Origin: Chthoniobacteraceae bacterium
GTDB taxonomy: Bacteria > Verrucomicrobiota > Verrucomicrobiia > Chthoniobacterales > Chthoniobacteraceae
NCBI GenBank assembly: GCA_037190965.1
Contig: JBBCKI010000032.1
Location: 1-62,783 of the forward strand
Direction: 5' to 3'
DNA length: 62,783 nucleotides
Shown here: positions 19,563 to 41,600 of the stretch, piece after piece
Numbering within the stretch: the stretch's first letter is position 1
How the letters are laid out: each line of letters opens with the position of its first letter
Position numbers and translations under genes: made by a program
Notes under the pieces: generated by a model
What the model was told of the DNA's origin: nothing
The model's input: only the letters and a program-made list of their open reading frames with translations
Database searches by the model: none

Positions 19563-19723
19563 AGGTAGCCCGCTCTCGCCGAGAGCGCGGGATCGATGAA
19601 GAGTCGCGTTCGATGCCCATCCCCGCAGGACGGGTTGCTGGTGCTGGGATGCGGCTTTCATGAAGCCACGGGAGCCGATACCCGCGCTCGACGGCGCGAA
19701 CGTCCTACCGGTGTTCCCGCACC
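19563..19723 (-). repeat. REPIN-like element family A
   Basis: AGGTAGCCCGCTCTCGCCGAGAGCGCGGG ... CCCCGCAGGACGGG ... CCCGCGCTCGACGGCGCG..CTACCGGTG..CCGCACC. Confidence 0.93.
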
Positions 19724-23858: not shown

Positions 23859-25139
23859 ATGTTTGAAATCAATGAGCGGGAGAAGATCGTCGAGCGCGCC
23901 CTGTTGGTGGGCGCTTACGTCGACACCGCCGATAAGGCTGACGCCGCGAGCCTGCTGGAGGAGTTGGAGGAGCTGGTCAACACCCTCGGCATTCCCGTGA
24001 TCGATCGGATGCTCGTGCATCACCGGGAGACGCACGCCAAGCTTCTGATCGGATCGGGTAAAGCCGAGGAGATCGCCGCGCTCGTCAAAGACAACAAGCT
24101 CGACGTGGTGATCTTCGACAACGAGTTGACCCCCGCCCAACAGCGCAACTGGGAGAAGCTGACCGGCGTCACCGTCGCGGATCGCCAGGAGATCATTCTC
24201 GATATTTTCGCCTCCCGTGCCAAGACACGCGAAGCACGGCTGCAGGTGGATGTCGCCCGCATGGAGTACTCGCTTCCCCGGCTCACTCGCGCCTGGAGCC
24301 ACCTTGGCCAGCAGGGTGGCGGCATCGGCTCAAAGGGCGAGGGCGAAAGCCAGCTTGAGCAGGACAAACGTAAAATTCGCGGGCAGATCGATCGGCTCAA
24401 GCGCGAGTTGCAGGAGGTCCGCCGCGCCCGCGCCACCCAGCGCAAAGACCGGAAACGCGCCCCGGTCCCCAACGCCGCCATCGTCGGCTACACCAACGCG
24501 GGAAAATCATCGCTCCTGCGGAAGCTGACCGGCGCGGATGTGCTCGTGGAGGACAAGCTTTTCGCCACGCTCGACACCACCACGCGCAAAATCGCCCTGC
24601 CGAACAAGCAGCCGCTTCTGATAACGGATACCGTCGGCTTCGTCCGCCGGCTACCGCACCAGTTGGTGGAATCCTTCAACGCCACGCTGGAGGAAGCCGC
24701 GCTTTCCGACTTCATGATCCACGTCCTCGACGCCTCGCAGCCAAGGGTGATCGAGTATTATAACACGACCCTCCGCGTCCTGGGAGACCTGGAGGCCGAC
24801 ACGCGGCAGATGCTCGTCGTCTTCAACAAGATCGACAAGGTGGATGACCCGGGCGTTCTCGCGGGCCTGCGGATTCATTTCCCCGAGGCTCTCTTTATCT
24901 CCGTCCACACCGGCGAGGGAATCGACGCGCTGGTGGATCGCATCTCCGATTTCGTCAGCAACGGCACCCAGACGATCGAGCTGCGCCTACCCGCGGCCCG
25001 GGCCGATCTCCTGGCCCGGGTGCATCGCGAAGGCACCGTCCTGCAACTCGACTACGAAGGCGACGTTGCCCATCTCCGCGCCGCGCTACCGAAACGCGCA
25101 AGGGAAGCGTTGGAGGCTTGGCGGGTGGGGGAGGAATAA
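23859..25139 (+). CDS. hflX: GTPase HflX
   Basis: IGSGKAEE, ELTPAQQRN, GYTNAGKS, LFATLD, DTVGF, NKID. Confidence 0.96.
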   Translation: MFEINEREKIVERALLVGAYVDTADKADAASLLEELEELVNTLGIPVIDRMLVHHRETHAKLLIGSGKAEEIAALVKDNKLDVVIFDNELTPAQQRNWEKLTGVTVADRQEIILDIFASRAKTREARLQVDVARMEYSLPRLTRAWSHLGQQGGGIGSKGEGESQLEQDKRKIRGQIDRLKRELQEVRRARATQRKDRKRAPVPNAAIVGYTNAGKSSLLRKLTGADVLVEDKLFATLDTTTRKIALPNKQPLLITDTVGFVRRLPHQLVESFNATLEEAALSDFMIHVLDASQPRVIEYYNTTLRVLGDLEADTRQMLVVFNKIDKVDDPGVLAGLRIHFPEALFISVHTGEGIDALVDRISDFVSNGTQTIELRLPAARADLLARVHREGTVLQLDYEGDVAHLRAALPKRAREALEAWRVGEE

Positions 25140-25183: not shown

Positions 25184-25342
25184 GTGCGGCAGCACCGGTA
25201 GCCCGCTCGCGCCGTCGAGCGCGGGTATCGACTACCATGGCTTCATGAAGGTCGCATCCCAATGATAAAAGCCCGTCCTGCGGGGATGCGTGCCAAACGA
25301 GACTCTTCATCGATCCCGCGCTCTCGGCGAGAGCGGGCTACC
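25184..25342 (+). repeat. REPIN-like element family A
   Basis: GTGCGGCAGCACCGGTAGCCCGCTCGCGCCGTCGAGCGCGGG ... CCCGCGCTCTCGGCGAGAGCGGGCTACC. Confidence 0.95.
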
Positions 25343-25402
25343 CTCCCGTCCTCCACTGGCCAATTTCCATCCATTGCCATTTTAAGGATAAGAGAGAATC
25401 GT

Positions 25403-25458
25403 CTACGAACACCCTTGGCAGGTTCTGCACTCCGTGCAGCAGCCGCAGGCTCCGGCGC
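25403..25458 (-). repeat. Displaced duplicate of the last 17 codons plus stop of nrdJ (att-like)
   Basis: Minus strand reads AGACGCCTECRTCQGCS* vs AGACGCCTECGTSQGCS* in nrdJ. Confidence 0.9.
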
Positions 25459-25518
25459 CAGTGCTCTAAATTCTCCTGAAAACGTCGATGGTTCCTGGAA
25501 GCATCGAGCGATTTGCGC

Positions 25519-25776
25519 TCATGCCTTTTCAGACCGAAGGACTCTTAAAAATTCCTCGGGTGTAATTCCATAAACCTCGCAAAACCGAAGCCATTCCACC
25601 ACGTCAACTCGCCGTTCCCCGTTTTCGCATTTAGAAACAAAAGATTGAGGGCGTTTCAGGAGCTTGGCCGCGTCCCACTGAGTCAACCCAGATTCCTCTC
25701 GTACGAGCTTCAAAACGTCCAAAAAACGGTCATGAGCGGGAGAGAACAGGGATTTTTCAGGATTGCTGCGAGGCAT
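25519..25776 (-). CDS. XRE-family helix-turn-helix regulator
   Basis: LKLVREESGLTQ..AAKLL.RPQSFVSKCENGERRVDVVE; GGAG-like context not clear but ORF is family-typical length. Confidence 0.9.
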   Translation of the reverse strand: MPRSNPEKSLFSPAHDRFLDVLKLVREESGLTQWDAAKLLKRPQSFVSKCENGERRVDVVEWLRFCEVYGITPEEFLRVLRSEKA

Positions 25777-25800
25777 TCAATCGGAGCTTGCCATTAAGGT

Positions 25801-25829
25801 GAAGAATATCCCAATATGGGATATTCTTC
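25801..25829. promoter_or_regulatory. Palindromic operator upstream of the XRE gene
   Basis: Perfect 13-bp inverted repeat GAAGAATATCCCA-ATA-TGGGATATTCTTC, 24 bp from the XRE start codon. Confidence 0.75.
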
Positions 25830-25981
25830 TCAAGGCCCTGAGAAGCCACTGAGAGTGGGGCAACTACGAATGGGACAGATCCATCCGGGGTTGTCCCACT
25901 CTTACTTTGAGCTACCCCGTTATTCTCTACGCAGCCACATCAAATCCGGCCGCTCGGGAGCGGTTTCACTGCGGTTTCCTC

Positions 25982-28900
25982 CTAGGAACACCCCTGGCTG
26001 GTCCCGCACTCCGTGCAGCAGCCGCAAGCTCCGGCGCGGATCACCTTGTTGCTTCCGCAGTGGGAGCAGGTAATATCCATATACATATTGCCGAGCGCTT
26101 CCTTTACGCGGTCCGCATGGCTGGCCGGGGCTGGGGTACCTTCAGAGTTCGCACGGCTGGTGATCACATCGATCACCTCTTTCTCGCCGGTCCGTGAAAG
26201 ATCGGTCACCGGACGGTTAACCGATTTCTTCTCCAGCTCGCCCAACTCCTTCATCGGGAGTTCAGGCTGGGCGGCGGAACGATTCGGGGAGGTCGCCTCC
26301 TTGTACCCCTTGATGAACTGGCAGCCGAGCCAGCGGAACACGTAGTCGGTGATCGAGGTGGCATTGCGGATGTCGGGGTTCTTGGTGAACCCGGACGGCT
26401 CGAAGCGTTGATAGGCAAACTTTTTGACGAGGCTCTCCAGTGGCACTCCGTATTGCAACGAAATGGAAGTGAGCGTCGCGACGGTATCCATGAGGCCACC
26501 GATAGTGGAGCCTTCCTTCGCCATCTGGATGAAGAGTTCACCCGGCTGGCCGTTCTCATACAAACCGACGGTAACGTATCCCTCATGGCCCGCGATGTCG
26601 AACTTGTGCGTCAGGGAGACGCGCGTGTCGGGCATCCGGTGGCGCACCGGCTGGTTGATCTGCTCGCGAAGCGCGCCAAGCTCGGCTTCCAGCTCGATCA
26701 CGCGTGATTCCAGCTCTGCCTTGGCGGAAACAGTGCTCTCCACGCCTGCGATCCCTGTGCTCCCCATATCTGCGGTCTTCTTGGTGTTCAGCGGCGCGGA
26801 ACGCTTGGAGCCATCGCGGTAGATGGCGATGGCCTTGAGCCCCAGCCGCCATCCTTCCACGTACGTGTTGACGATATCGTCCACGGTCGCCTCCTCGGGA
26901 AGGTTCACCGTCTTTGAGATGGCCCCGCTCAGGAACGGCTGGGCGGCCGCCATCATCCGGATATGTCCCCGGTAATGAAGGCTCCGCTTGCCGCGATACG
27001 GCTTAAAGGCGCAGTCGAAAACGGGGAGATGCTCCTCGCGCAATCCCGAGCGGATCGGCTCGCCCGTTTGCTCGTCGAGCACATCCTCAATGGTGTCGAA
27101 CTGGTTGATGTGCGCGCTGATCTTCTCGATCTCCTCCGCGCGATAGCCGAGCCCGGCCAACGCGGGCGGCACCGTCTGGTTCACGATCTTGAGCATTCCG
27201 CCTCCCGCCAGCAGCTTGTATTTCACCAGCGCGATGTCCGGCTCGATCCCGGTCGTATCGCAATCCATCAGGAAGCCGATGGTGCCGGTTGGGGCGAGAA
27301 CCGTGACCTGTGCGTTCCGGTAGCCGTGCTTTTTCCCGAGGGTCAGCGCGCGATCCCAGCAACGCTGCGCCTCTTCCTGAAGCGAGGCGAAGCGCTCGGG
27401 CGATTCGATCTTCGCGACGTGGCTGCGGTGCAATGCGATCACCTCCAGCATCGGGGCGACGTTATCCTTCGCCACGGTCGTTTCGACGCCGCTTGCCTGC
27501 GCGTGATGGTAGCCGGGGAAGGGCCCCATGGCTTCCGCCATCCGGGCGCTTTGCTCGTAAGCATGCCCGGTCATGATCGCGGTAATCGACCCGGCCAGCG
27601 CGCGCCCTTCGTCACTGTCGTAACCGAGGCCAAGGCTCATGATGAGCGCGCCGAGGTTGGCATAACCAAGGCCGAGCGTCCGATAGATGTGCGAGTTCTC
27701 CGCGATCTCCTTGATCGGATAGCTGGCGTTATCGACCAGGATCTCCTGCGCGGTAATGAAAATCCGCACGGCCGCCTTGAAGCGCTCCACGTCAAAGCCG
27801 CCGTCGGCGCGCTTGAACTTCATGAGATTGAGCGAAGCGAGGTTGCACGCGGTGTCGTCCAGGAAGAGATATTCCGAGCACGGGTTCGTCGAATTCTGCC
27901 GGGCGGTGCCCTTGCAGGTGTGCCACGTATGGATCGTGGAGTCGAACTGCATCCCCGGGTCGCCGCAAACATGCGTCCCCCCGGCAATCTTGCGCAGCAG
28001 CGCGGCGGCATCCTTCTTCTCGCAAGGCTTGCCGTCGGTGACCCGCCGGGTCCACCACTCCTTCTCCTCCACCGCCGCCTGCATGAACTCGTCGCTCACG
28101 CGGACGGAGAGGTTTTCGTTCTGGTACATGATGGAGCCGTAGGCCTCACCGTTGAAGCTTCCGTCATACCCCTGCTCAATGAGCGCCCATGCCTTGCGCT
28201 CTTCCCTCTGCTTGGCCTCGATGAACTCCTCGATGTCCGGGTGCCAATCCTTGAGCGTGTTCATCTTCGCCGCGCGGCGCGTTTTGCCGCCGGATTTGAC
28301 CACGTTGGCCACCTGGTCGTAGACCTTCAGGAACGAGAGGGGACCGCTCGGCTTGCCGCCGCCGCTCAGTTTCTCGCGCGTGCTGCGAAGCGTGGAAAGA
28401 TCGCTCCCGGTACCCGAACCGTACTTGAAAAGCAGCGCCTCCGAGGCGGCGAGCTTCATGATGTCCTCCATGGTATCCTGGACGGACTGGATGAAACACG
28501 CGCTCCCCTGCGGGTACTCGTACTGGGTCGGCGCCTGTACCGCCGCACCGATCTCACGGTTGAAATAGTAGTTCCCCTTCTGGCCCCCCTTGCCGACCCC
28601 ATATTGATGATAGAGCCCGACGTTGAACCAGACCGGGCTGTTAAACGCGCCGTGCTGGTTGAGGCAAAGCCACGTCAGATCCTCGTAGAAGGTCTCCGCC
28701 GTCTCCGCGTCGGCAAAATAGCCGTCGGCAATCCCCCAATCGGTGATGGTCCGGGTAACCCGGTGGATCAGCTGCCGAACGGAATTTTCCCGCCCCCCCT
28801 TGAAAGGGTTCGTGCCGTTGGCGATATCTCCATAAAAATATTTTGAGACGGCGATCTTCGTGGCCAGCGGAGTCCAACTCCGGGGCACTTCCACATTCTC

Positions 28901-29134
28901 CTGCTTGAAAATCGTCTTGCCGCCGTCGTCGGTGATCTCCGCCGTCCGCCGGTCCCATTCCACCTGATCAAAGGGAGAAACTCCTGCGGTGCTGAAGGCA
29001 CGCTCGAAACGGAGACCCGTGTTGGAACGGCTCTTTGCCTTGCCCGGACGCGTGGACTTTGACGCTTTTCCAGGCAGGCGGCCTCCGGGGGATTTCAACT
29101 GAGCAGGGCGAACTCCGGACTTGAATTTGATCAT
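25982..29134 (-). CDS. nrdJ: Class II (adenosylcobalamin-dependent) ribonucleotide reductase with C-terminal TSCPD-like and zinc-ribbon regions
   Basis: FNSPVWFN, SACF, GGKTRRAAKM, STNPCSE, APTGTI, LSGAISKTVNLP, C-terminal CSHC..CTEC. Confidence 0.95.
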   Translation of the reverse strand: MIKFKSGVRPAQLKSPGGRLPGKASKSTRPGKAKSRSNTGLRFERAFSTAGVSPFDQVEWDRRTAEITDDGGKTIFKQENVEVPRSWTPLATKIAVSKYFYGDIANGTNPFKGGRENSVRQLIHRVTRTITDWGIADGYFADAETAETFYEDLTWLCLNQHGAFNSPVWFNVGLYHQYGVGKGGQKGNYYFNREIGAAVQAPTQYEYPQGSACFIQSVQDTMEDIMKLAASEALLFKYGSGTGSDLSTLRSTREKLSGGGKPSGPLSFLKVYDQVANVVKSGGKTRRAAKMNTLKDWHPDIEEFIEAKQREERKAWALIEQGYDGSFNGEAYGSIMYQNENLSVRVSDEFMQAAVEEKEWWTRRVTDGKPCEKKDAAALLRKIAGGTHVCGDPGMQFDSTIHTWHTCKGTARQNSTNPCSEYLFLDDTACNLASLNLMKFKRADGGFDVERFKAAVRIFITAQEILVDNASYPIKEIAENSHIYRTLGLGYANLGALIMSLGLGYDSDEGRALAGSITAIMTGHAYEQSARMAEAMGPFPGYHHAQASGVETTVAKDNVAPMLEVIALHRSHVAKIESPERFASLQEEAQRCWDRALTLGKKHGYRNAQVTVLAPTGTIGFLMDCDTTGIEPDIALVKYKLLAGGGMLKIVNQTVPPALAGLGYRAEEIEKISAHINQFDTIEDVLDEQTGEPIRSGLREEHLPVFDCAFKPYRGKRSLHYRGHIRMMAAAQPFLSGAISKTVNLPEEATVDDIVNTYVEGWRLGLKAIAIYRDGSKRSAPLNTKKTADMGSTGIAGVESTVSAKAELESRVIELEAELGALREQINQPVRHRMPDTRVSLTHKFDIAGHEGYVTVGLYENGQPGELFIQMAKEGSTIGGLMDTVATLTSISLQYGVPLESLVKKFAYQRFEPSGFTKNPDIRNATSITDYVFRWLGCQFIKGYKEATSPNRSAAQPELPMKELGELEKKSVNRPVTDLSRTGEKEVIDVITSRANSEGTPAPASHADRVKEALGNMYMDITCSHCGSNKVIRAGACGCCTECGTSQGCS

Positions 29135-29267: not shown

Positions 29268-29313
29268 CCACACCGTGTGGGGGGATGTGGCTCAAATACC
29301 ACTATATCTTGTG
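29268..29313. promoter_or_regulatory. NrdR boxes (strong at 29299-29313, degenerate at 29268-29282)
   Basis: CCACTATATCTTGTG matches acaCwAtATaTwGtg at 13/15; second box CCACACCGTGTGGGG starts 31 bp away. Confidence 0.8.
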
Positions 29314-29462
29314 GGATAGTCTCAAGTCGAAAAGTCGCTCAAACCCCTCTTTTTCCCCTTGCCAACAATTCCCAATTTTCGCCGGAAAGTCGAAACTCCC
29401 CGTGGCAGAAGAACTTCCGTCATTTGGGCTGGTCCCTCGCTGTTTTCCGGTGGAAGAGCGCA

Positions 29463-29621
29463 AGGTAGCCCGCTCTCGCCGAGAGCGCGGGATTGATGAT
29501 GAGCCACGTTTGACGCTCATCCCCGCAGGACGGGCTGCTGGGATGGGGATGCGGACCTCATGAAGCACGGAGCCGATACCCTCGCTCGACGGCGCGAGCG
29601 TGCTACCGGTGCTGCCGCACC
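29463..29621 (-). repeat. REPIN-like element family A
   Basis: Both arms and the CCCCGCAGGACGGG core present. Confidence 0.95.
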
Positions 29622-34862: not shown

Positions 34863-36266
34863 ATGATGAAACGCTTTCTCAAGGCCGCTCGTTACATTGG
34901 TATCGCCATCGTCTCGCTGGGATTGCTGGCTGCAGCATGGGGCGCATTCGAAAGCAACCGGAGCAAACGCGCATGGGAGAGTTACCGACGCGAAGCAGCG
35001 GCACAGGGAATACAACTCGATTTTTCCACGAGGTCGCCGATTCCCGAAGCGGACAATTTTATAAGCACCCCTCTCTTCAAAAAACTTTTTGAAGGAGCGC
35101 AAAATGAGACAGCCGGGTATCAAAAGGAGCTCGAGAAACGCCTCTCTTTCAACCGCGATTCCAAAGCCAAACCACCTGCCGCAAGCTGGGTGGAAGGAGA
35201 ACGAACTCCGCTTGAACAGTGGGCTACCTATTTCGGCAACGCGGACATTCTGGAGGCGCTCAGAAAATTTGATCCGGAACTGGCGGAAATCAGCGAAGCG
35301 GCCAAACGCCCCAAGCTTCGGTTTCTTTTGGGTTCTACAGAAACTGAATTTCCGAAGGGGTTTTCGTGTTTCTCCTCGTTGCGATCGCTCGCGCAGCTTT
35401 ATCGATTGCGCGGTGCGGCCGCTTTAGCGCAGGGGCAAACGGATCTGGCCCTCGCGGATACGGAAACGCTCCTGCAAATGGCTGGCGCGTTATCGAGGAG
35501 CGACAACTTTCTCGGCGAAATTCTCTTTACCCCCGCACTGATCATGCCCGGGTTGCAGATCGTTTGGGAAGGCGTCGAGAGAAACCAATGGTCAAAAGAT
35601 CAACTTGTGAGGTTGCAAAACCTCCTGCAAGGCATTGATTTGTTGGAGATGAAACGCCGCGCGGTTCAGCTGGAGCGTGCGTTTTTCAATCACCGAATAG
35701 AGGAAGAACCCTGCATTTTTTCCAAAACCTTTTTGCATCGCTTACAAAAGCATTGGGTTCTTCTCGAAGTAAATCGCGCCTATGATCGCGATATTTCTTC
35801 GATGATCGATCCCGGGCGCCATCGGGTTTATCTTAAACCAAAAGCCGAGACCGAGCCGCCCACAGGTCTCTCTTCCTATTTTAAGGCCGGTGAACTGATG
35901 ATCCATCAGGCCATATCTACTTTTCAGAAGACCAATCTTTCCATTGCATCGACGCAGGTTTACCTCGATGAAGCTGTGATTTCCTGCGCATTGGAGCGTT
36001 TCCGCATTGATCATGGGAAATATCCCAGCCAGTTGGAGGCATTGGTTCCGCAATATCTCGTCAGGCTGCCCCATGATGTCATCAGCGGGGAACCTTTGAA
36101 ATACCGCCTGAAAGACGAAGGCGGATATTTCCTCTATTCAATGGGAGCAAATGGAACCGACGAAGGCGGCCAGGTTGTGATGAAGAAAGAGGGTTGCAAA
36201 GGGCCGGATTTGGAACAAGGAGATTGGGTCTGGAAGATCCCCAGCTCTCCATCAGCCATTCAATAG
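34863..36266 (+). CDS. Membrane-anchored hypothetical protein with C-terminal GspG/pseudopilin-like segment
   Basis: N-terminal TM; ALERFRIDHGKYPSQLEALVPQYL..PHDVISGEPLKY..LYSMGANGTDEGG. Confidence 0.7.
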   Translation: MMKRFLKAARYIGIAIVSLGLLAAAWGAFESNRSKRAWESYRREAAAQGIQLDFSTRSPIPEADNFISTPLFKKLFEGAQNETAGYQKELEKRLSFNRDSKAKPPAASWVEGERTPLEQWATYFGNADILEALRKFDPELAEISEAAKRPKLRFLLGSTETEFPKGFSCFSSLRSLAQLYRLRGAAALAQGQTDLALADTETLLQMAGALSRSDNFLGEILFTPALIMPGLQIVWEGVERNQWSKDQLVRLQNLLQGIDLLEMKRRAVQLERAFFNHRIEEEPCIFSKTFLHRLQKHWVLLEVNRAYDRDISSMIDPGRHRVYLKPKAETEPPTGLSSYFKAGELMIHQAISTFQKTNLSIASTQVYLDEAVISCALERFRIDHGKYPSQLEALVPQYLVRLPHDVISGEPLKYRLKDEGGYFLYSMGANGTDEGGQVVMKKEGCKGPDLEQGDWVWKIPSSPSAIQ

Positions 36267-36279
36267 CGAAAAGAAACTT

Positions 36280-36618
36280 CTACCATCTCGGATCTGCCAG
36301 CGCTTTTTCGACGTTCTCGAAGGCCTGGAAGAGATCGAGGATCCCGCCGATCAGGAACATGTTTTTGCACTCAGGGTTAAGGCCTGCAAGAACCATGCGC
36401 CCTTTCACTTTCGCCAGCTCCTGCGCGGGAATGAACAATGCGCGAATGCCCATACTGGCAATAAAGGTAGTAGCTGAAAAATCGATGATCAAAGATCGAG
36501 TTCCCGACTCGATATGACGGAGCGTTTGTTCCCTGAAAACATCCGACGCGACGTTATCGAGACGTCCTTCGATGGCGATGACGAGAATGGAACCTTCGCG
36601 GCGTTCTGAGAGTTGCAT
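36280..36618 (-). CDS. STAS-domain anti-anti-sigma factor
   Basis: IEGRLD, IIDFSATTFIASMGIRAL. Confidence 0.88.
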   Translation of the reverse strand: MQLSERREGSILVIAIEGRLDNVASDVFREQTLRHIESGTRSLIIDFSATTFIASMGIRALFIPAQELAKVKGRMVLAGLNPECKNMFLIGGILDLFQAFENVEKALADPRW

Positions 36619-36703
36619 GGGGAGCGAGAAGTTCCTGGACAATAGCGGGCTGGTGAAAGTTGCAAAAGGAAACAGAAAGAAATTCGGTACTTTTCTGCCA
36701 AAA

Positions 36704-36866
36704 GGTGCGGTAGCACCGGTAGTCCGCTCGCGCCGCCGAGCGCGGGTATCGGCTTTCTTGGCTTCCTGAAGACCCCATCCCAACGGCTATCAGCCCGTTT
36801 TACGGGGACGGGAGTCAAACGCGTATCCAGGTCATGTCCCGCTCTCTCGGCGAGAGCGGTCTACCT
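36704..36866 (+). repeat. REPIN-like element family A (diverged)
   Basis: GGTGCGGTAGCACCGGTAGTCCGCTCGCG ... CTCTCGGCGAGAGCGGTCTACCT. Confidence 0.92.
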
Positions 36867-36889
36867 TTGCCGGTCTTCTAAACCACGTC

Positions 36890-37864
36890 CTATTCCAAAA
36901 AAAGCCGCTTTGCCCTGCGGCGGGCATGCCGGTTCCCCGGGAGATTCACCTTGGCCCTATCTCCCTCCAACAAAGAGCGGACGGTTTCCACTTCGCCAAA
37001 ACCGACATCCTGCACGCCATGACTTCGAAGCCAGGCCAAAATCCGGCGGCGTTGCAGGGCGAGCGGCTGGGCGATGAGTTCCGGGACTGATAAAAACGCT
37101 TCCTGTTCGCTCCCCGTCGTGTTCGACACCAAAGCATCCAGCCATTCTTCTTCGGCACGAATAATCTCCGAATTTCGCCAGACCGCGCCGCGAACGTCGC
37201 GCCCGAAGAGTTGCTCCAGCATCGGCAAAAGCTCATGCCGGATGCGGTTGCGCGTATAAGCAGGGGAAAGATTGCTGACGTCCTCGCGATGGCGAATCTT
37301 GCGCGCGGCGACGTACTGATCGATTTCCGCCCGCCAGATCCCGAGCATCGGCCTCACGAGACGCAGCGCAACCCCCTCCACTGTGCGCTCGCTTTCCGGG
37401 CTCATCCCACCAAGACCTGCCCGGCCTGCACCGCGAAAGAGATTGAAGAGAAAAGTCTCCACCTGATCGTCGGCATGATGGGCCAGAATCACCGTGCGAC
37501 AGCGGCGGCGTTTTGCAACAGAGGCAAAAAACCGGTAACGGGCTTCGCGCGCGGCAGTTTCAATCGACCGCCCTTCGGCGGCGGCGAGGGTGGTCACGTC
37601 GGCAGTTCCGACCTCGCATTCCAACCCAAGCCGTCGGGCCAGTGCCGCCACAAAACGGGCATCTCCCGTTGAAGCCCGCCCACGCAATCGGTGATTGAGA
37701 TGGCAGACAATGAGCTTCTTAAACCCCGCGGCCACCAGCGCATCCAGAAGCGCCACCGAATCTTTCCCTCCCGAGACGGCCACCAGCGCACGGGCTGTTC
37801 TGGAAAGGCCGTCCAGCCGCAGCCTCCTTTCGAAAACGGCGGCAGGGTGAGGGTTCGTTTTCAC
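36890..37864 (-). CDS. tilS: tRNA(Ile)-lysidine synthetase
   Basis: AVSGGKDS PP-loop, HLNHRLRG, AREARY, AHHADDQVET, RNRIRH; GTG start estimated. Confidence 0.93.
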   Translation of the reverse strand: MKTNPHPAAVFERRLRLDGLSRTARALVAVSGGKDSVALLDALVAAGFKKLIVCHLNHRLRGRASTGDARFVAALARRLGLECEVGTADVTTLAAAEGRSIETAAREARYRFFASVAKRRRCRTVILAHHADDQVETFLFNLFRGAGRAGLGGMSPESERTVEGVALRLVRPMLGIWRAEIDQYVAARKIRHREDVSNLSPAYTRNRIRHELLPMLEQLFGRDVRGAVWRNSEIIRAEEEWLDALVSNTTGSEQEAFLSVPELIAQPLALQRRRILAWLRSHGVQDVGFGEVETVRSLLEGDRAKVNLPGNRHARRRAKRLFLE

Positions 37865-37878
37865 GGGAGAAACCCCGA

Positions 37879-39150
37879 TCAGCGGATCTCGGCCGCGCCG
37901 AAATAAGGCTGAAGCGGTTCGGGAATCCTGATGCTGCCGTCGGGCTGCTGATAGGTTTCCAGCAGCGCCACAAAAAGCCGGGGCATCGCGGTGCCGGATC
38001 CATTGAGGGTATGGCAAAAGCGGTTTTTGCCCTCCGCGTCCTTGAACTTGAGGTTCATCCGGCGTGCCTGAAAGTCGGTGTAATTCGAACAACTCGACAC
38101 TTCCAGATACCCGTTCTGACCCGGAGCCCAGACTTCGATGTCGTAAGTCTTGGCCGACCCAAAGCCCATGTCGCCCGTGCAGAGTTCGATGACTCGGTAA
38201 TGCAGCCCGAGAAGCTGAAGCACCTTTTCCGCATTGGCGGTCAACGCTTCCAACTCGTCCCAGGAAGTTTCCGGTGTGGTCACTTTGACCAGTTCCACCT
38301 TGTCGAATTGATGAACCCGGATGATGCCGCGCGTCTCACGCCCGGCGGAACCCGCCTCACGACGAAAACAGGGGGTGTAAGCCGTCAATTTTTTCGGCAG
38401 ATCGCCCAAAGCAACGATTTCTTCCCGGTAAAGATTGGTCACCGGCACCTCGGCGGTCGGAGCGAGGAACACGGCGCCGTCTTCGAGGCCGTACATATCG
38501 TCCTCAAATTTGGGAAGCTGCCCGGTGCCGATCATGGAATCCCGCCGGATCAGGAACGGCGGGCTGACTTCCAGATAACCGTGCTCCCGCGTGTGAAGAT
38601 CGAGGCAAAAATTGATAAGCGCGCGTTCCAACCGGGCTCCCGCTCCGGTGAAACAGACAAACCCGCTGCCGCTGATCTTTGCAGCGCGATCGGGATCGAA
38701 CAGCCCAAGGCTCATCCCCAACGCAACGTGATCCTTCGCTTCGAAATTGAGAGTCGGCTTCTCGCCCCAGCTCCGCACAACCGGGTTGGCGTCGGCATCC
38801 GCGCCCACCGGGACGGAGTCCGCGGGGATATTGGGAAGCTGCAGGAGGAGATCCCGCTGGAGTTCATCCGCCTGGGTCACCTGCGCGTTGAGCCCGGCAA
38901 TCTCGTCGCCCATCGCACGCACCTGATCCTCGATTTCCGAGGTCGGTTCGCCCTTGGATCGCTTCATCCCGATCTCTTTGCTGAACCGCTTGCGGTCGCC
39001 GTTGAGCTGCTGAAGACGGGTTTCCAACTCGCGACGGTTGCGGTCGCAGGCCAGAATTTCGTCAATCTTCAAAGAGGCGTCCCCCCCGCGGCTCGCGATT
39101 TTCTCGCGAACAAGGCCGGGGTTCTCGCGAATGAGCCGGATGTCGAGCAT
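37879..39150 (-). CDS. serS: Serine--tRNA ligase
   Basis: MLDIRLIREN, LAPTAEVP, CFRREAG, HQFDKVE, EVSSCSN, TLNGSG. Confidence 0.97.
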   Translation of the reverse strand: MLDIRLIRENPGLVREKIASRGGDASLKIDEILACDRNRRELETRLQQLNGDRKRFSKEIGMKRSKGEPTSEIEDQVRAMGDEIAGLNAQVTQADELQRDLLLQLPNIPADSVPVGADADANPVVRSWGEKPTLNFEAKDHVALGMSLGLFDPDRAAKISGSGFVCFTGAGARLERALINFCLDLHTREHGYLEVSPPFLIRRDSMIGTGQLPKFEDDMYGLEDGAVFLAPTAEVPVTNLYREEIVALGDLPKKLTAYTPCFRREAGSAGRETRGIIRVHQFDKVELVKVTTPETSWDELEALTANAEKVLQLLGLHYRVIELCTGDMGFGSAKTYDIEVWAPGQNGYLEVSSCSNYTDFQARRMNLKFKDAEGKNRFCHTLNGSGTAMPRLFVALLETYQQPDGSIRIPEPLQPYFGAAEIR

Positions 39151-39261
39151 GGCTGCGAACCTTAGCGGGTCGGCGGCACGGGACAAATTGAAAAATATGC
39201 CTTTTCGTCAGCCGGCATCAGACGACCGCCAACCCGCAGTGCGCCGAAACCTAGAGCACTT

Positions 39262-39879
39262 ATGAAACGATCCGTATTCGGCCTTTTGAAAACCCGGGAA
39301 GACGCGGAAGCCATCGTGAACCGCCTGAAAACCTCGGGATTCTCCAACACCGACATTTCCGTCCTCTTTCCGGATGTCGATACCACGCGCGACTTCACCC
39401 AGGAACAAGCGACAAAGGCCCCTGAGGGCGCTGCAACCGGTGGGACAACTGGTTTCGTGGTCGGCGGGGTGCTAGGCTGGCTGGCGGGCATCGGTTCACT
39501 GGCAATTCCGGGGGTCGGCCCATTCATCGCGGCCGGGCCGATCATGGCAGCCCTGAGCGGCGCAGCCGTTGGAGCCGCCGTGGGCGGAATTGCGGGCGCT
39601 TTGATCGGGATGGGAATTCCTGAATTCGAAGCCAGGCATTACGAAACGAAGCTCAAGCAGGGGCATGTTCTGATTTCGATTCACGCCGATGACGACGTAA
39701 AAGCCAATCAAGCCAAGGAGATTCTTCTGGCAGCTTCTGCCGAAGACGTCGCCACGAGCGGGGAACCGGGCCTGAAAGGCGAAACGACGCCTCCTCCCTC
39801 CACCCCCCCGACATCGAAGGGGAATGTCAATCCTCTGACCGGTCGGCCTGATCCGCGCCGGGAAATTGGGCAGGGATAG
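39262..39879 (+). CDS. General-stress/YflT-like glycine-zipper membrane protein
   Basis: EGAATGGTTG..GGVLGWLAGIGSLAIPGVGPFIAAGP..GMGIPEFEA. Confidence 0.85.
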   Translation: MKRSVFGLLKTREDAEAIVNRLKTSGFSNTDISVLFPDVDTTRDFTQEQATKAPEGAATGGTTGFVVGGVLGWLAGIGSLAIPGVGPFIAAGPIMAALSGAAVGAAVGGIAGALIGMGIPEFEARHYETKLKQGHVLISIHADDDVKANQAKEILLAASAEDVATSGEPGLKGETTPPPSTPPTSKGNVNPLTGRPDPRREIGQG

Positions 39880-40101
39880 CTGAATGCCTGTTTTGTTCAC
39901 ACGCTCTTCTGATGAAGAGATAATTTTTTAAAGCCATTCTCTTCATATTATGCGTGTGAATAGTTTCGAGAAAGCGTGTTCCACATTGCCGGCAAAAGGG
40001 TTCCATGAGCTTTGGTGGCTGTGAAGAACCTTGGGATGAGAAGCGAGTGGCTGGGAGGAAACCGGAGCCGCTCGTAGTTTTGGGAAGTTATTCGGGAGAA
40101 A

Positions 40102-40863
40102 CTAAACGTTATTCCCAAAGTCATTCCCATCGTTTCTCCACCGTTCCGCATTGAGCGCATGGATGGCGGCGTTGACTTCCGCTTCCTTCTTGCTTTTGCC
40201 GGAACCACGGCCGAGTTCGATATCGCCCCAGTGAACCACCGACTCAAAATGTTTGAGATGTTCGGGGCCTGACTGGCTGGTGATGGAGTAAACCGGGCTG
40301 CGTGGCGAAAGCGCCTGGAGGAGTTCCTGAAGGCGACCTTTGGGGTTCACGTGCATCGGCTCATGCAGGAGGTTCTCGATGTCAGGCTCGGCTTCGCGCA
40401 GGACGAACCGACGAACTGAATCGAGGTCGCTATCAAGGTACATCGCGCCGATCAATGCCTCGAAGGCATCGGCGAGCGCCGAAGCCCGGACGCGGCCGCC
40501 GCTCGATTCCTCGCCCTTGCCCATCATGAGGTATTCTCCCAGACCGATGGCAATGGCATGGACCTTCAATCCCTCGCGCGAGACAAGGCGGGAACGCATT
40601 TTCGTGAGTTCCCCTTCGGAAAGCGTCGGGAAACGTTCGAAAAGATGCTCCGTAAAGACAAGCTGAAGCACAGCGTCTCCCAGAAACTCGAGGCGCTGGT
40701 TGTCGAAATGATGGCGCTGGGTCTCGTGCCCAAGGCTCGGGTGGGTGAGCGCTTCGGCAAGGAACAGCGAGTTGCGAAATTTATACTGAATCCGCTTCTC
40801 GAGCGGATTCATGAAGCTCGGAGGCGGAAGATCAGGAGGGGGAGGTGCGGGCTGATCGATCAT
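40102..40863 (-). CDS. rnc: Ribonuclease III
   Basis: ALTHPS, NQRLEFLGDAVL, ADAFEALIGA, dsRBD NPKGRLQE..SKKEAE; ATGA overlap with upstream gene (alternative start 40812). Confidence 0.97.
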   Translation of the reverse strand: MIDQPAPPPPDLPPPSFMNPLEKRIQYKFRNSLFLAEALTHPSLGHETQRHHFDNQRLEFLGDAVLQLVFTEHLFERFPTLSEGELTKMRSRLVSREGLKVHAIAIGLGEYLMMGKGEESSGGRVRASALADAFEALIGAMYLDSDLDSVRRFVLREAEPDIENLLHEPMHVNPKGRLQELLQALSPRSPVYSITSQSGPEHLKHFESVVHWGDIELGRGSGKSKKEAEVNAAIHALNAERWRNDGNDFGNNV

Positions 40864-41600
40864 TGAACGGCAGGCTCGGGGACAATCCCTGAGCTTTTCG
40901 CGAATTCTTGCACGGCCCCAAGCATGGCGTTGAAAAACAGGGAAACGGTGGTGAAAACCGCTGCATGTTCCTGGCGGGAAAGGAGGATTCCTTCCCCGGC
41001 CTTCCAGCTTCGCTCATAGTTGGCGAGCCGGGCCTCGGTTTCCCCTTCGGCGGGGGGCTGAACGACTTTGAGGTTAAGGGTAAGCGTTTCGCCTTCTCCG
41101 ACGACACCATTGCGGTGGAAAAGAGTACGGGCGAGGGCGACAAGCGAAAGAATTTCGGCTTCCAGCGGGATCTCCGCGCCGATTCGCTGCCGAAGCTGCT
41201 GGAAACGGCCGGGAAAATCGGGGGGCGGCGCCGCATTGAGTTCGGCGGCTAGGGAAGCCAGGTTGTTGGAAGCCTTGGCCCGGGCGACGTTGAAAACAAC
41301 CAGTCCGGAGAGTTTCCGGATGTCTTCCAGGAAAACCGCAATCAAGCCGAGGGCTTCGTTGACGCTGTGTTTGAGGGCGGAACGTTCGGCCGCTTCCTTG
41401 GCGACTTCGAACGGGAGGCGAAACTGGGTGACCGGGAGGCCGGGGATACTTCGGGCCATTTCATCGTACCCTTGCTCGCTGACGGTTCGTGCCCCTGCCC
41501 AATCGAAAACGGCGAGGTCGCTAAGGTGCTGGATCGCTTCGGTATACTTGAGGGCGATGTCGTTGAGGCTGATCGTGCGGGAGGGAGAGGCTTCGGTCAT
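40860..41600 (-). CDS. Hypothetical protein coupled to rnc
   Basis: Protein-like composition and stop/start overlap with rnc. Confidence 0.75.
   Translation of the reverse strand: MTEASPSRTISLNDIALKYTEAIQHLSDLAVFDWAGARTVSEQGYDEMARSIPGLPVTQFRLPFEVAKEAAERSALKHSVNEALGLIAVFLEDIRKLSGLVVFNVARAKASNNLASLAAELNAAPPPDFPGRFQQLRQRIGAEIPLEAEILSLVALARTLFHRNGVVGEGETLTLNLKVVQPPAEGETEARLANYERSWKAGEGILLSRQEHAAVFTTVSLFFNAMLGAVQEFAKSSGIVPEPAVQ

Follow-up and report, generated by a model that had tools for sequence, protein, structure and literature searches.

A duplicated nrdJ 3′ end in a Chthoniobacteraceae genome: probable remnant of integrase-free displacement at a site occupied by defence genes

Introduction

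What does it mean when the last few dozen nucleotides of a housekeeping gene recur a short distance downstream, with foreign-looking DNA in between? This question is raised by a 62,783-nt contig of a Chthoniobacteraceae bacterium (GenBank assembly GCA_037190965.1, contig JBBCKI010000032.1; in the following called the window, contig C32 of genome G000), in which the end of nrdJ, a ribonucleotide reductase gene, is present twice around an islet with a single regulator gene. Integrase-carrying islands at the ends of tRNA, ssrA or protein-coding genes supply a replacement 3′ end and leave the displaced original end as a direct repeat, and islands at the ends of protein genes are an established precedent. 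An earlier note, made from the sequence of this window, followed that precedent: an element had entered nrdJ, restored its end with synonymous recoding and collapsed to a remnant or become a satellite, and larger relatives might form a new island family. From the analysis below we consider it probable that the islet is instead the decayed remnant of a 3′-end displacement that proceeded without an integrase, at a hotspot for defence genes.

Results

A duplicated nrdJ end encloses a one-gene islet

The gene nrdJ (25982–29134, minus strand) encodes a class II (B12-dependent) ribonucleotide reductase of 1050 amino acids, matched by PF02867, PF08471 and PF12637 and by NF005122 above its cut-off. 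Its final 56 nt, stop codon included (25982–26037, minus strand; AGACGCCTECGTSQGCS, then stop), are in the following called the working tail. A second copy at 25403–25458 on the same strand (AGACGCCTECRTCQGCS, then stop) lacks a start codon and is likely a displaced tail (called the orphan tail below). The copies align without gaps, are identical at 50 of 56 bases and are spaced 579 bp from start to start. Against the G000 genome such a match has a blastn E-value of 9e-14, and blastn found no third copy of the tail anywhere in that genome. The mismatches occupy third codon positions (11, 35, 44 and 53) and first codon positions (33 and 39). As 33 and 35 share a codon, the changed codons comprise three synonymous and two non-synonymous ones, the latter being G to R and S to C in the orphan tail.

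The unique DNA between the repeats measures 523 bp (25459–25981); 579 bp is the size of the excisable unit, not of the enclosed DNA. This insert has a G+C content of 0.505, compared with 0.61–0.63 in the flanking genes and 0.59 in the genome, which places it within the lowest 3.5% of all 523-bp genome windows. It contains a gene for an XRE-family protein of 85 amino acids (25519–25776, minus strand; HTH_31/HTH_3 in Pfam) and a 13+3+13 palindrome at 25801–25829. Its non-coding parts matched nothing elsewhere in the genome or in the fetched loci. The earlier note's description of the repeat, its spacing and the AT-richer islet with regulator and palindrome was thus reproduced by recomputation.

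That note had named misassembly as a possible refutation. Logan contigs of two runs show 0 differences from the window: in run X1, which may be the source sample, one of 4170 nt spans 25314–28500, and those from another sample of that study extend over 25542–25868 and 25888–26038. Misassembly of the repeat region is ruled out by the X1 contig, which spans it unchanged. Neither an excised form nor a joint skipping the islet was seen in the contigs of the two runs; since contigs drop rare variants, this does not count against such forms.

Orphan tails recur downstream of nrdJ in related genomes

A degenerate tail pattern matched 28 of 401 genomes of the class and 193 of 401 genomes of the order. 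Its double matches resolved into true orphan tails (G000, G264 and G282), a tandem duplication (G590) and second long nrdJ genes (G458 and G632). In the sister family f14, a blastn survey gave matches in 223 of 251 genomes, with two matches in 28. After all 28 two-hit genomes had been located, orphan tails were recognised in at least nine of the 223 (G264, G282, G775, G711, G768, G779, G781, G784 and G876), with L083 and L192, which hold one sequence, counted once. Four unpublished genomes (G535, G751, G756 and G853) enter only the denominators of the order and f14 surveys. Among the metagenome loci, 72 of 120 extend at least 500 nt downstream of nrdJ; they yielded one clear orphan (L230, the same sequence as L292) and one weak one (L283).

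The orphan tails of the relatives lie 0.1–2.7 kb downstream of nrdJ, the largest insert being 2.7 kb. They are always downstream and on the same strand: none was found upstream of nrdJ in 493 kb, and no internal nrdJ fragments were present in 114 downstream regions. Distant second tails, considered as the far ends of large islands, proved to be second long nrdJ genes (G458, G632, G942 and G015). Five second matches on other contigs were fetched (G784, G720, G742, G876 and G893), and none is a tail, all being full nrdJ genes or chance matches; the remaining matches, of 19–31 nt, were not fetched.

Two further arrangements were seen next to nrdJ. G590 (L034, contig C39) has a tandem duplication of 7,065 bp that includes all of nrdJ, with near-identical copies, and may be an assembly effect. 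At L026:1237–1467 (G026), and likewise in L304 and L317, an intact open reading frame (ORF) of 66–82 amino acids directly follows nrdJ, and its C-terminal end corresponds to the whole four-cysteine ribbon of NrdJ at ~50–60% identity. These ORFs are possibly displaced tails that turned into genes.

Empty and filled sites with variable cargo

In 45 loci nrdJ is followed by a gene identified by eye as encoding an acyl-CoA dehydrogenase. The two genes are at most 305 nt apart in 23 of these loci (empty sites), while 22 have inserts of 0.5–3 kb, six of which were fetched during the follow-up of orphan tails. The cargo belongs to many unrelated families without a common endonuclease. Between the tails, G876 carries a phospholipase gene of a cyclic-oligonucleotide-based antiphage signalling system (CBASS) and a CD-NTase-like gene, G779 a DUF433 toxin-antitoxin pair, G781 a similar but decayed pair, G784 TcmP and DUF5131 genes, and G711 a gene (TIR-like by eye) broken by a DDE transposase. 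Unnamed ORFs fill the interval in G264, L230 and L283, and almost nothing lies between the tails of G282, G775 and G768. HNH, TIR/SEFIR, pPIWI-associated nuclease and methylase genes were found at occupied sites without an orphan tail. The TcmP/DUF5131 cassette follows nrdJ both with an orphan tail (G784) and without one (L144), at 74% identity over 1766 nt, and the orphan-less arrangement of L144 would represent a donor-like state. The G876 locus (L193:3593–6200) holds a three-gene CBASS-like operon (phospholipase, CD-NTase, E2-like by eye) that begins at most 30 nt past the nrdJ stop codon and ends ~20 nt before the orphan tail.

Within the genus of G000, one of five congeners matched nrdJ with the G000 query, with a different neighbour there, and the neighbours of hflX differ in three congeners. 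The four genomes without a match are G001, G002, G003 and G005, three of them 94–96% complete. Because four of five congeners lack a match to this query, nrdJ itself appears patchily distributed in the genus.

Paired tails differ mostly at synonymous sites

To compare working and orphan tails we counted codon differences in five pairs, taking G282 and G775 as one pair. The ratios of synonymous to non-synonymous differences were 3:2, 13:1, 5:2, 6:1 and 8:2, that is, 35 of 43 pooled differences are synonymous. Given an expected fraction of 0.45, this excess has P=1e-6, and P=7e-4 without G282; the third-position pattern of G000 alone (4 of 6) has P=0.26. Since the tails of a pair differ mostly synonymously, they are likely two alleles and not products of local duplication. 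In G282 and G775 the orphan is the native-like copy, 3–4 changes away from the tails of other genomes, and the working tail differs by at least 11 changes from all but its sister. In G000, either tail may be the native one. A variable linker in nrdJ is followed by a conserved block, the final ~130 nt of the gene.

No recombinase accompanies the nrdJ site

Eight tyrosine-recombinase domains of G000, searched by tblastn in 120 downstream regions (507,528 nt), gave one match, in L092 at a tRNA-Pro gene, and Pfam scans of 135 of 185 representative downstream ORFs returned the same single integrase. Serine recombinases were covered by the Pfam scans only. In the downstream parts of the metagenome loci (367,762 nt) tblastn with tyrosine-recombinase domains found none. 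The L092 integrase was rejected as an enzyme of the nrdJ site, as it belongs to the tRNA-Pro island. That island (L092:1900–3260) carries a frameshifted integrase related to the one on G000 contig C29. Apart from it, no recombinase tied to nrdJ was found with any of the 12 orphan-bearing genomes or contigs, nor in the ~875 kb downstream. G000 itself has ten PF00589 matches, all on contigs other than C32, four of them adjoining tRNA genes, and no PF07508 match; contig C32 carries no recombinase. The true integrase islands of G000 retain their integrase beside the tRNA repeats.

The left edges of the orphan tails lie at profile positions -37, -55, -56, -59, -59, -60, -62, -72, -105 and -126. For one toxin-antitoxin cassette the edge is at -102 in G779 and at about -56 in G781, and such different ends of the same cassette show that edges erode. 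No common motif was found left of the orphan tails; the tail consensus contains a 10-bp GC-rich palindrome beside the cluster of edges. A phage-borne tail was considered and dismissed, with 0 matches of the nrdJ tail pattern in IMG/VR (exact matching only).

Similar scars at other genes of G000

We scanned the 2832 predicted long ORFs of G000 for orphan ends, naming genes by eye, and found comparable ones at three unrelated genes, all on contigs that carry no recombinase. On C68 (~35300–41300) an Hsp70/HscA-like gene has its final ~60 nt repeated 5.9 kb downstream, and the interval holds genes for a LacI-type regulator and secreted proteins. The end of a WcaJ-like gene is displaced at C1:59–1952 by a 1.7-kb insert, its repeat extending ~30 nt beyond the stop codon, and another gene end is displaced at C38:13934–15466; the C1 and C38 inserts measure 1.5–1.7 kb, and both repeats run beyond the stop codon. 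As comparable orphan ends exist at three other genes, the displacement process does not appear to be specific to nrdJ. G000 encodes Ku and has a match to ComEC.

Further features of the locus

The closest homologues of the XRE protein within the order share 38–55% identity and are patchily distributed, some adjoining methylases or nucleases; no other nrdJ, metagenome loci included, was found to be followed by the XRE gene of the islet. The palindrome at 25801–25829 overlaps a sigma70-like promoter with an extended -10 element (25833–25805, minus strand). Because similar palindromes precede several XRE homologues, it is likely an autoregulatory operator of the XRE gene. Judged as a controller of the C-protein type, the islet has the small XRE gene, the palindrome and the promoter, and the nuclease partner is absent. 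An 18-codon stub (25466–25522, minus strand), whose ATG overlaps the XRE stop codon (ATGA), might possibly be the remnant of a deleted partner gene; a long coupled partner occurs in just 2 of 29 XRE homologue loci, and short overlaps also arise by chance. Similarly, a 9-codon stub (25940–25969, minus strand), preceded by GGAGG, which resembles a ribosome-binding site and overlaps the stop codon of nrdJ, might possibly be a second remnant of cargo. We took two further ORFs (25816–26073 and 25262–25573) as shadows, since neither matches Pfam and each overlaps either nrdJ or a palindromic repeat.

This repeat (25187–25345), which we take to be of the repetitive extragenic palindromic (REP) kind, gives ~230–310 blastn hits per position genome-wide and lies outside both the direct repeat and the insert. 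Similar REP-like repeats occur near 19600, 29300–29560 and 36500 of the window, and an ORF resembling a REP-associated tyrosine transposase (by eye) is located on C43. Past the orphan tail follows hflX (23859–25139, plus strand; ORF and Pfam), a convergent host gene.

Discussion

How the nrdJ end could have been displaced

The locus and its relatives combine a co-oriented orphan end downstream of an intact anchor gene, different alleles in the paired tails when these are pooled, and variable cargo without a dedicated recombinase. We suggest that DNA from a related lineage, made up of that lineage's nrdJ tail and the adjoining downstream genes, would recombine by homology, presumably with RecA, within the conserved block of ~130 nt at the end of nrdJ. 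The incoming tail would become the working end of the gene, and the old tail would stay behind as a dead direct repeat. This could happen through a single crossover of a circularised fragment, or, equally well on the present data, through two exchanges, the right-hand one anchored in an orphan tail that the donor already had, so that scars would propagate and swap cargo. Genes inserted immediately after the stop codon would share the nrdJ transcript, and this may turn the site into a hotspot for defence and toxin-antitoxin genes. A later deletion likely removed all but the XRE regulator and its operator in G000.

Measured against these findings, part of the earlier interpretation stands. A replacement nrdJ end that displaced the original agrees with reuse of the site in relatives, with the empty and expanded sites there and with the foreign working tail of G282 and G775, but the integrase-type attachment site lacks a recombinase. 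The relatives supply both empty and larger sites, as predicted, though neither an empty allele of the exact locus nor an integrase-bearing island. Synonymous recoding holds for the pooled pairs and not for the G000 locus taken by itself. The proposed family of larger islands found no support: inserts reach 2.7 kb at most, left edges vary and no recombinase was found.

Several observations weigh against displacement by homology. No empty allele of the exact G000 locus was found among the congeners or, by its exact junction pattern, in metagenomes, and in the family of G000 one of 108 matching genomes (of 151) has an orphan tail, namely G000 itself. At 16 of the 22 occupied sites there is no orphan tail, and the symmetry to be expected is missing, as no orphaned 5′ end of the acyl-CoA dehydrogenase gene was found at any of the 22. 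The duplicated part is restricted to the last 50 codons of nrdJ (residues 1001–1050), shorter than most single-crossover duplications obtained in the laboratory. The tail pairs were detected through their resemblance to working tails, a procedure that favours synonymous differences, and a low third-codon-position G+C content of working tails is not general (P=0.35). The recoded tract of G282 and G775 begins sharply ~75 nt before the end, and their working tail is unlike any sampled chromosome, as would be expected of a tail carried by an element. Finally, seven of the 11 left edges are clustered between -62 and -55, as would follow from a fixed crossover site; simulated for 6 of 10 edges, before G781 was added as the seventh, this clustering has P=0.0006 under a uniform prior and P=0.005 under a short-skewed prior.

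Because the left edges cluster, an enzyme with a fixed site stays in play. An integrase element might have crossed over near the codons for IRAG, ~60 nt before the stop codon, supplied a recoded tail and then decayed, or been served in trans, leaving islets bounded by attachment sites. The palindrome beside the edge cluster, the abrupt and strong recoding in G282 and G775 and the compact, defence-rich cargo would all suit such an element. We nevertheless regard it as unlikely, given the recombinase-free surroundings of the 12 orphan-bearing genomes and contigs, the small inserts, second copies on other contigs that were full genes or chance matches where fetched, edges at -72, -102, -119 or beyond that fall outside a site at -60, the missing motif left of the orphans, the negative exact-match search of IMG/VR and the islands of G000 that did keep their integrase at tRNA repeats. 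An incoming restriction or homing nuclease would dispense with the fixed crossover: it would cut the resident tail, and repair would copy in a resistant tail together with cargo, leaving the old tail. The strongly recoded working tail of G282 and G775 would suit this, G000 encodes Ku, nuclease-like cargo exists (HNH in L122, a GIY-YIG/T5orf172-like ORF, by eye, in L230), and in L057 and L059 the XRE homologue directly precedes a long coupled gene adjoining a DNA methylase. A 56-bp repeat around an insert below 20 kb without a mobility gene also agrees with the size criteria for restriction-modification insertions in PMC2853133. On the other side, the G000 insert has neither nuclease nor methylase, the cargo families are unrelated and share no endonuclease, the palindrome that could be the cut site is intact in the working tails of G768, G711, G876 and L230, and the examples seen in PMC2853133 are near-identical repeats (43–47 of 46–47), not alleles. 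This makes a nuclease a quite improbable cause.

Lastly, the nrdJ end might have been duplicated in tandem on the spot, followed by deletion and drift and by the separate arrival of the XRE gene. The third-position pattern of G000 alone, which is not significant, would allow this, and the 7-kb duplication with a whole nrdJ in G590 offers an example of tandem duplication. It is opposed by the pooled synonymous excess, the foreign working tail of G282 and G775, the lower-GC cargo between the copies in several cases and the lack of internal nrdJ fragments downstream, and we judge it very remote. Displacement by homology thus remains our preferred reading.

A bolder version of it can be offered tentatively, as a conjecture that we would sooner doubt than adopt. 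The nrdJ tail of Chthoniobacterales might be a self-renewing, enzyme-free cassette site at which working tail, cargo and orphan insert together by homology alone, the orphan being a second anchor refreshed in each round, and at which systems such as CBASS would be swapped across genera without integrase or nuclease. If true, this would be a bacterial counterpart of the homing of yeast WHO elements, minus the homing enzyme.

The usual lack of boundary marks makes integrase-free hotspots hard to study. At nrdJ, each insertion is delimited on both sides by the displaced tail, which also records the incoming allele, and the empty, filled and decayed states of the site can be counted across an abundant soil lineage. 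The site also provides a rule for mining defence genes, the interval from nrdJ to the orphan tail, which yielded CBASS and several unnamed cargo genes.

Comparison with known systems

Like integrase islands, the nrdJ site has direct repeats of the 3′ end of its target gene, but such islands depend on a recombinase, of which none was found at nrdJ, and on a fixed crossover, of which the partly clustered, partly scattered left edges give no clear sign. Restriction-modification genes inserted with long target duplications, mostly in naturally competent species (PMC2853133), resemble it in repeats above 30 bp, inserts below 20 kb, the lack of a mobility gene and defence-type cargo. They are defined by R and M genes and near-identical repeats, whereas the G000 insert has only the XRE gene, the repeats are allelic and the nrdJ site recurs with many types of cargo. 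WHO elements at yeast FBA1 also bring a donor 3′ end for the working gene and leave the old end as a fragment, at which, as proposed in PMC7282813, recombination of the following round would take place. They differ in being eukaryotic, with a dedicated intein-like endonuclease and fragments of ~400 bp that have a common start; the nrdJ cargo has no common nuclease, and the G000 islet none at all. The nrdJ site accordingly does not appear to belong with integrase islands, restriction-modification insertions or homing elements.

Closer parallels come from recombination without an integrase. In PMC3240628, 56 of 60 E. coli recombinants had a partial duplication of the anchor, of 109–950 bp in the 14 sequenced cases, which is explained there by integration of a circularised molecule through one crossover. 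Such direct repeats of variable length, made from part of the anchor around foreign DNA, correspond to those at nrdJ; the laboratory conjugations described there involved an identical anchor, while the nrdJ repeats are 37–126 nt long and represent diverged alleles. Displacement of 3′ ends is described for Rhs, contact-dependent growth inhibition and Vibrio cholerae type VI secretion effector-immunity loci, where PMC5361080 proposes homology-facilitated illegitimate recombination. In these systems, as at nrdJ, a conserved anchor gene lies upstream, new modules push the old 3′ end downstream and no integrase is implicated. What they displace is the variable tip of a toxin together with its immunity gene; at nrdJ a synonymous allele replaces the invariant tail of a housekeeping enzyme, and anchor and cargo are unrelated. 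For nrdJ as an insertion site we found no report in open-access full text, a search outside which lie attB catalogues and paper supplements that could list it. The type of scar is thus already known and the islet of the window itself is a remnant; new here are the nrdJ site and its series of defence cargo.

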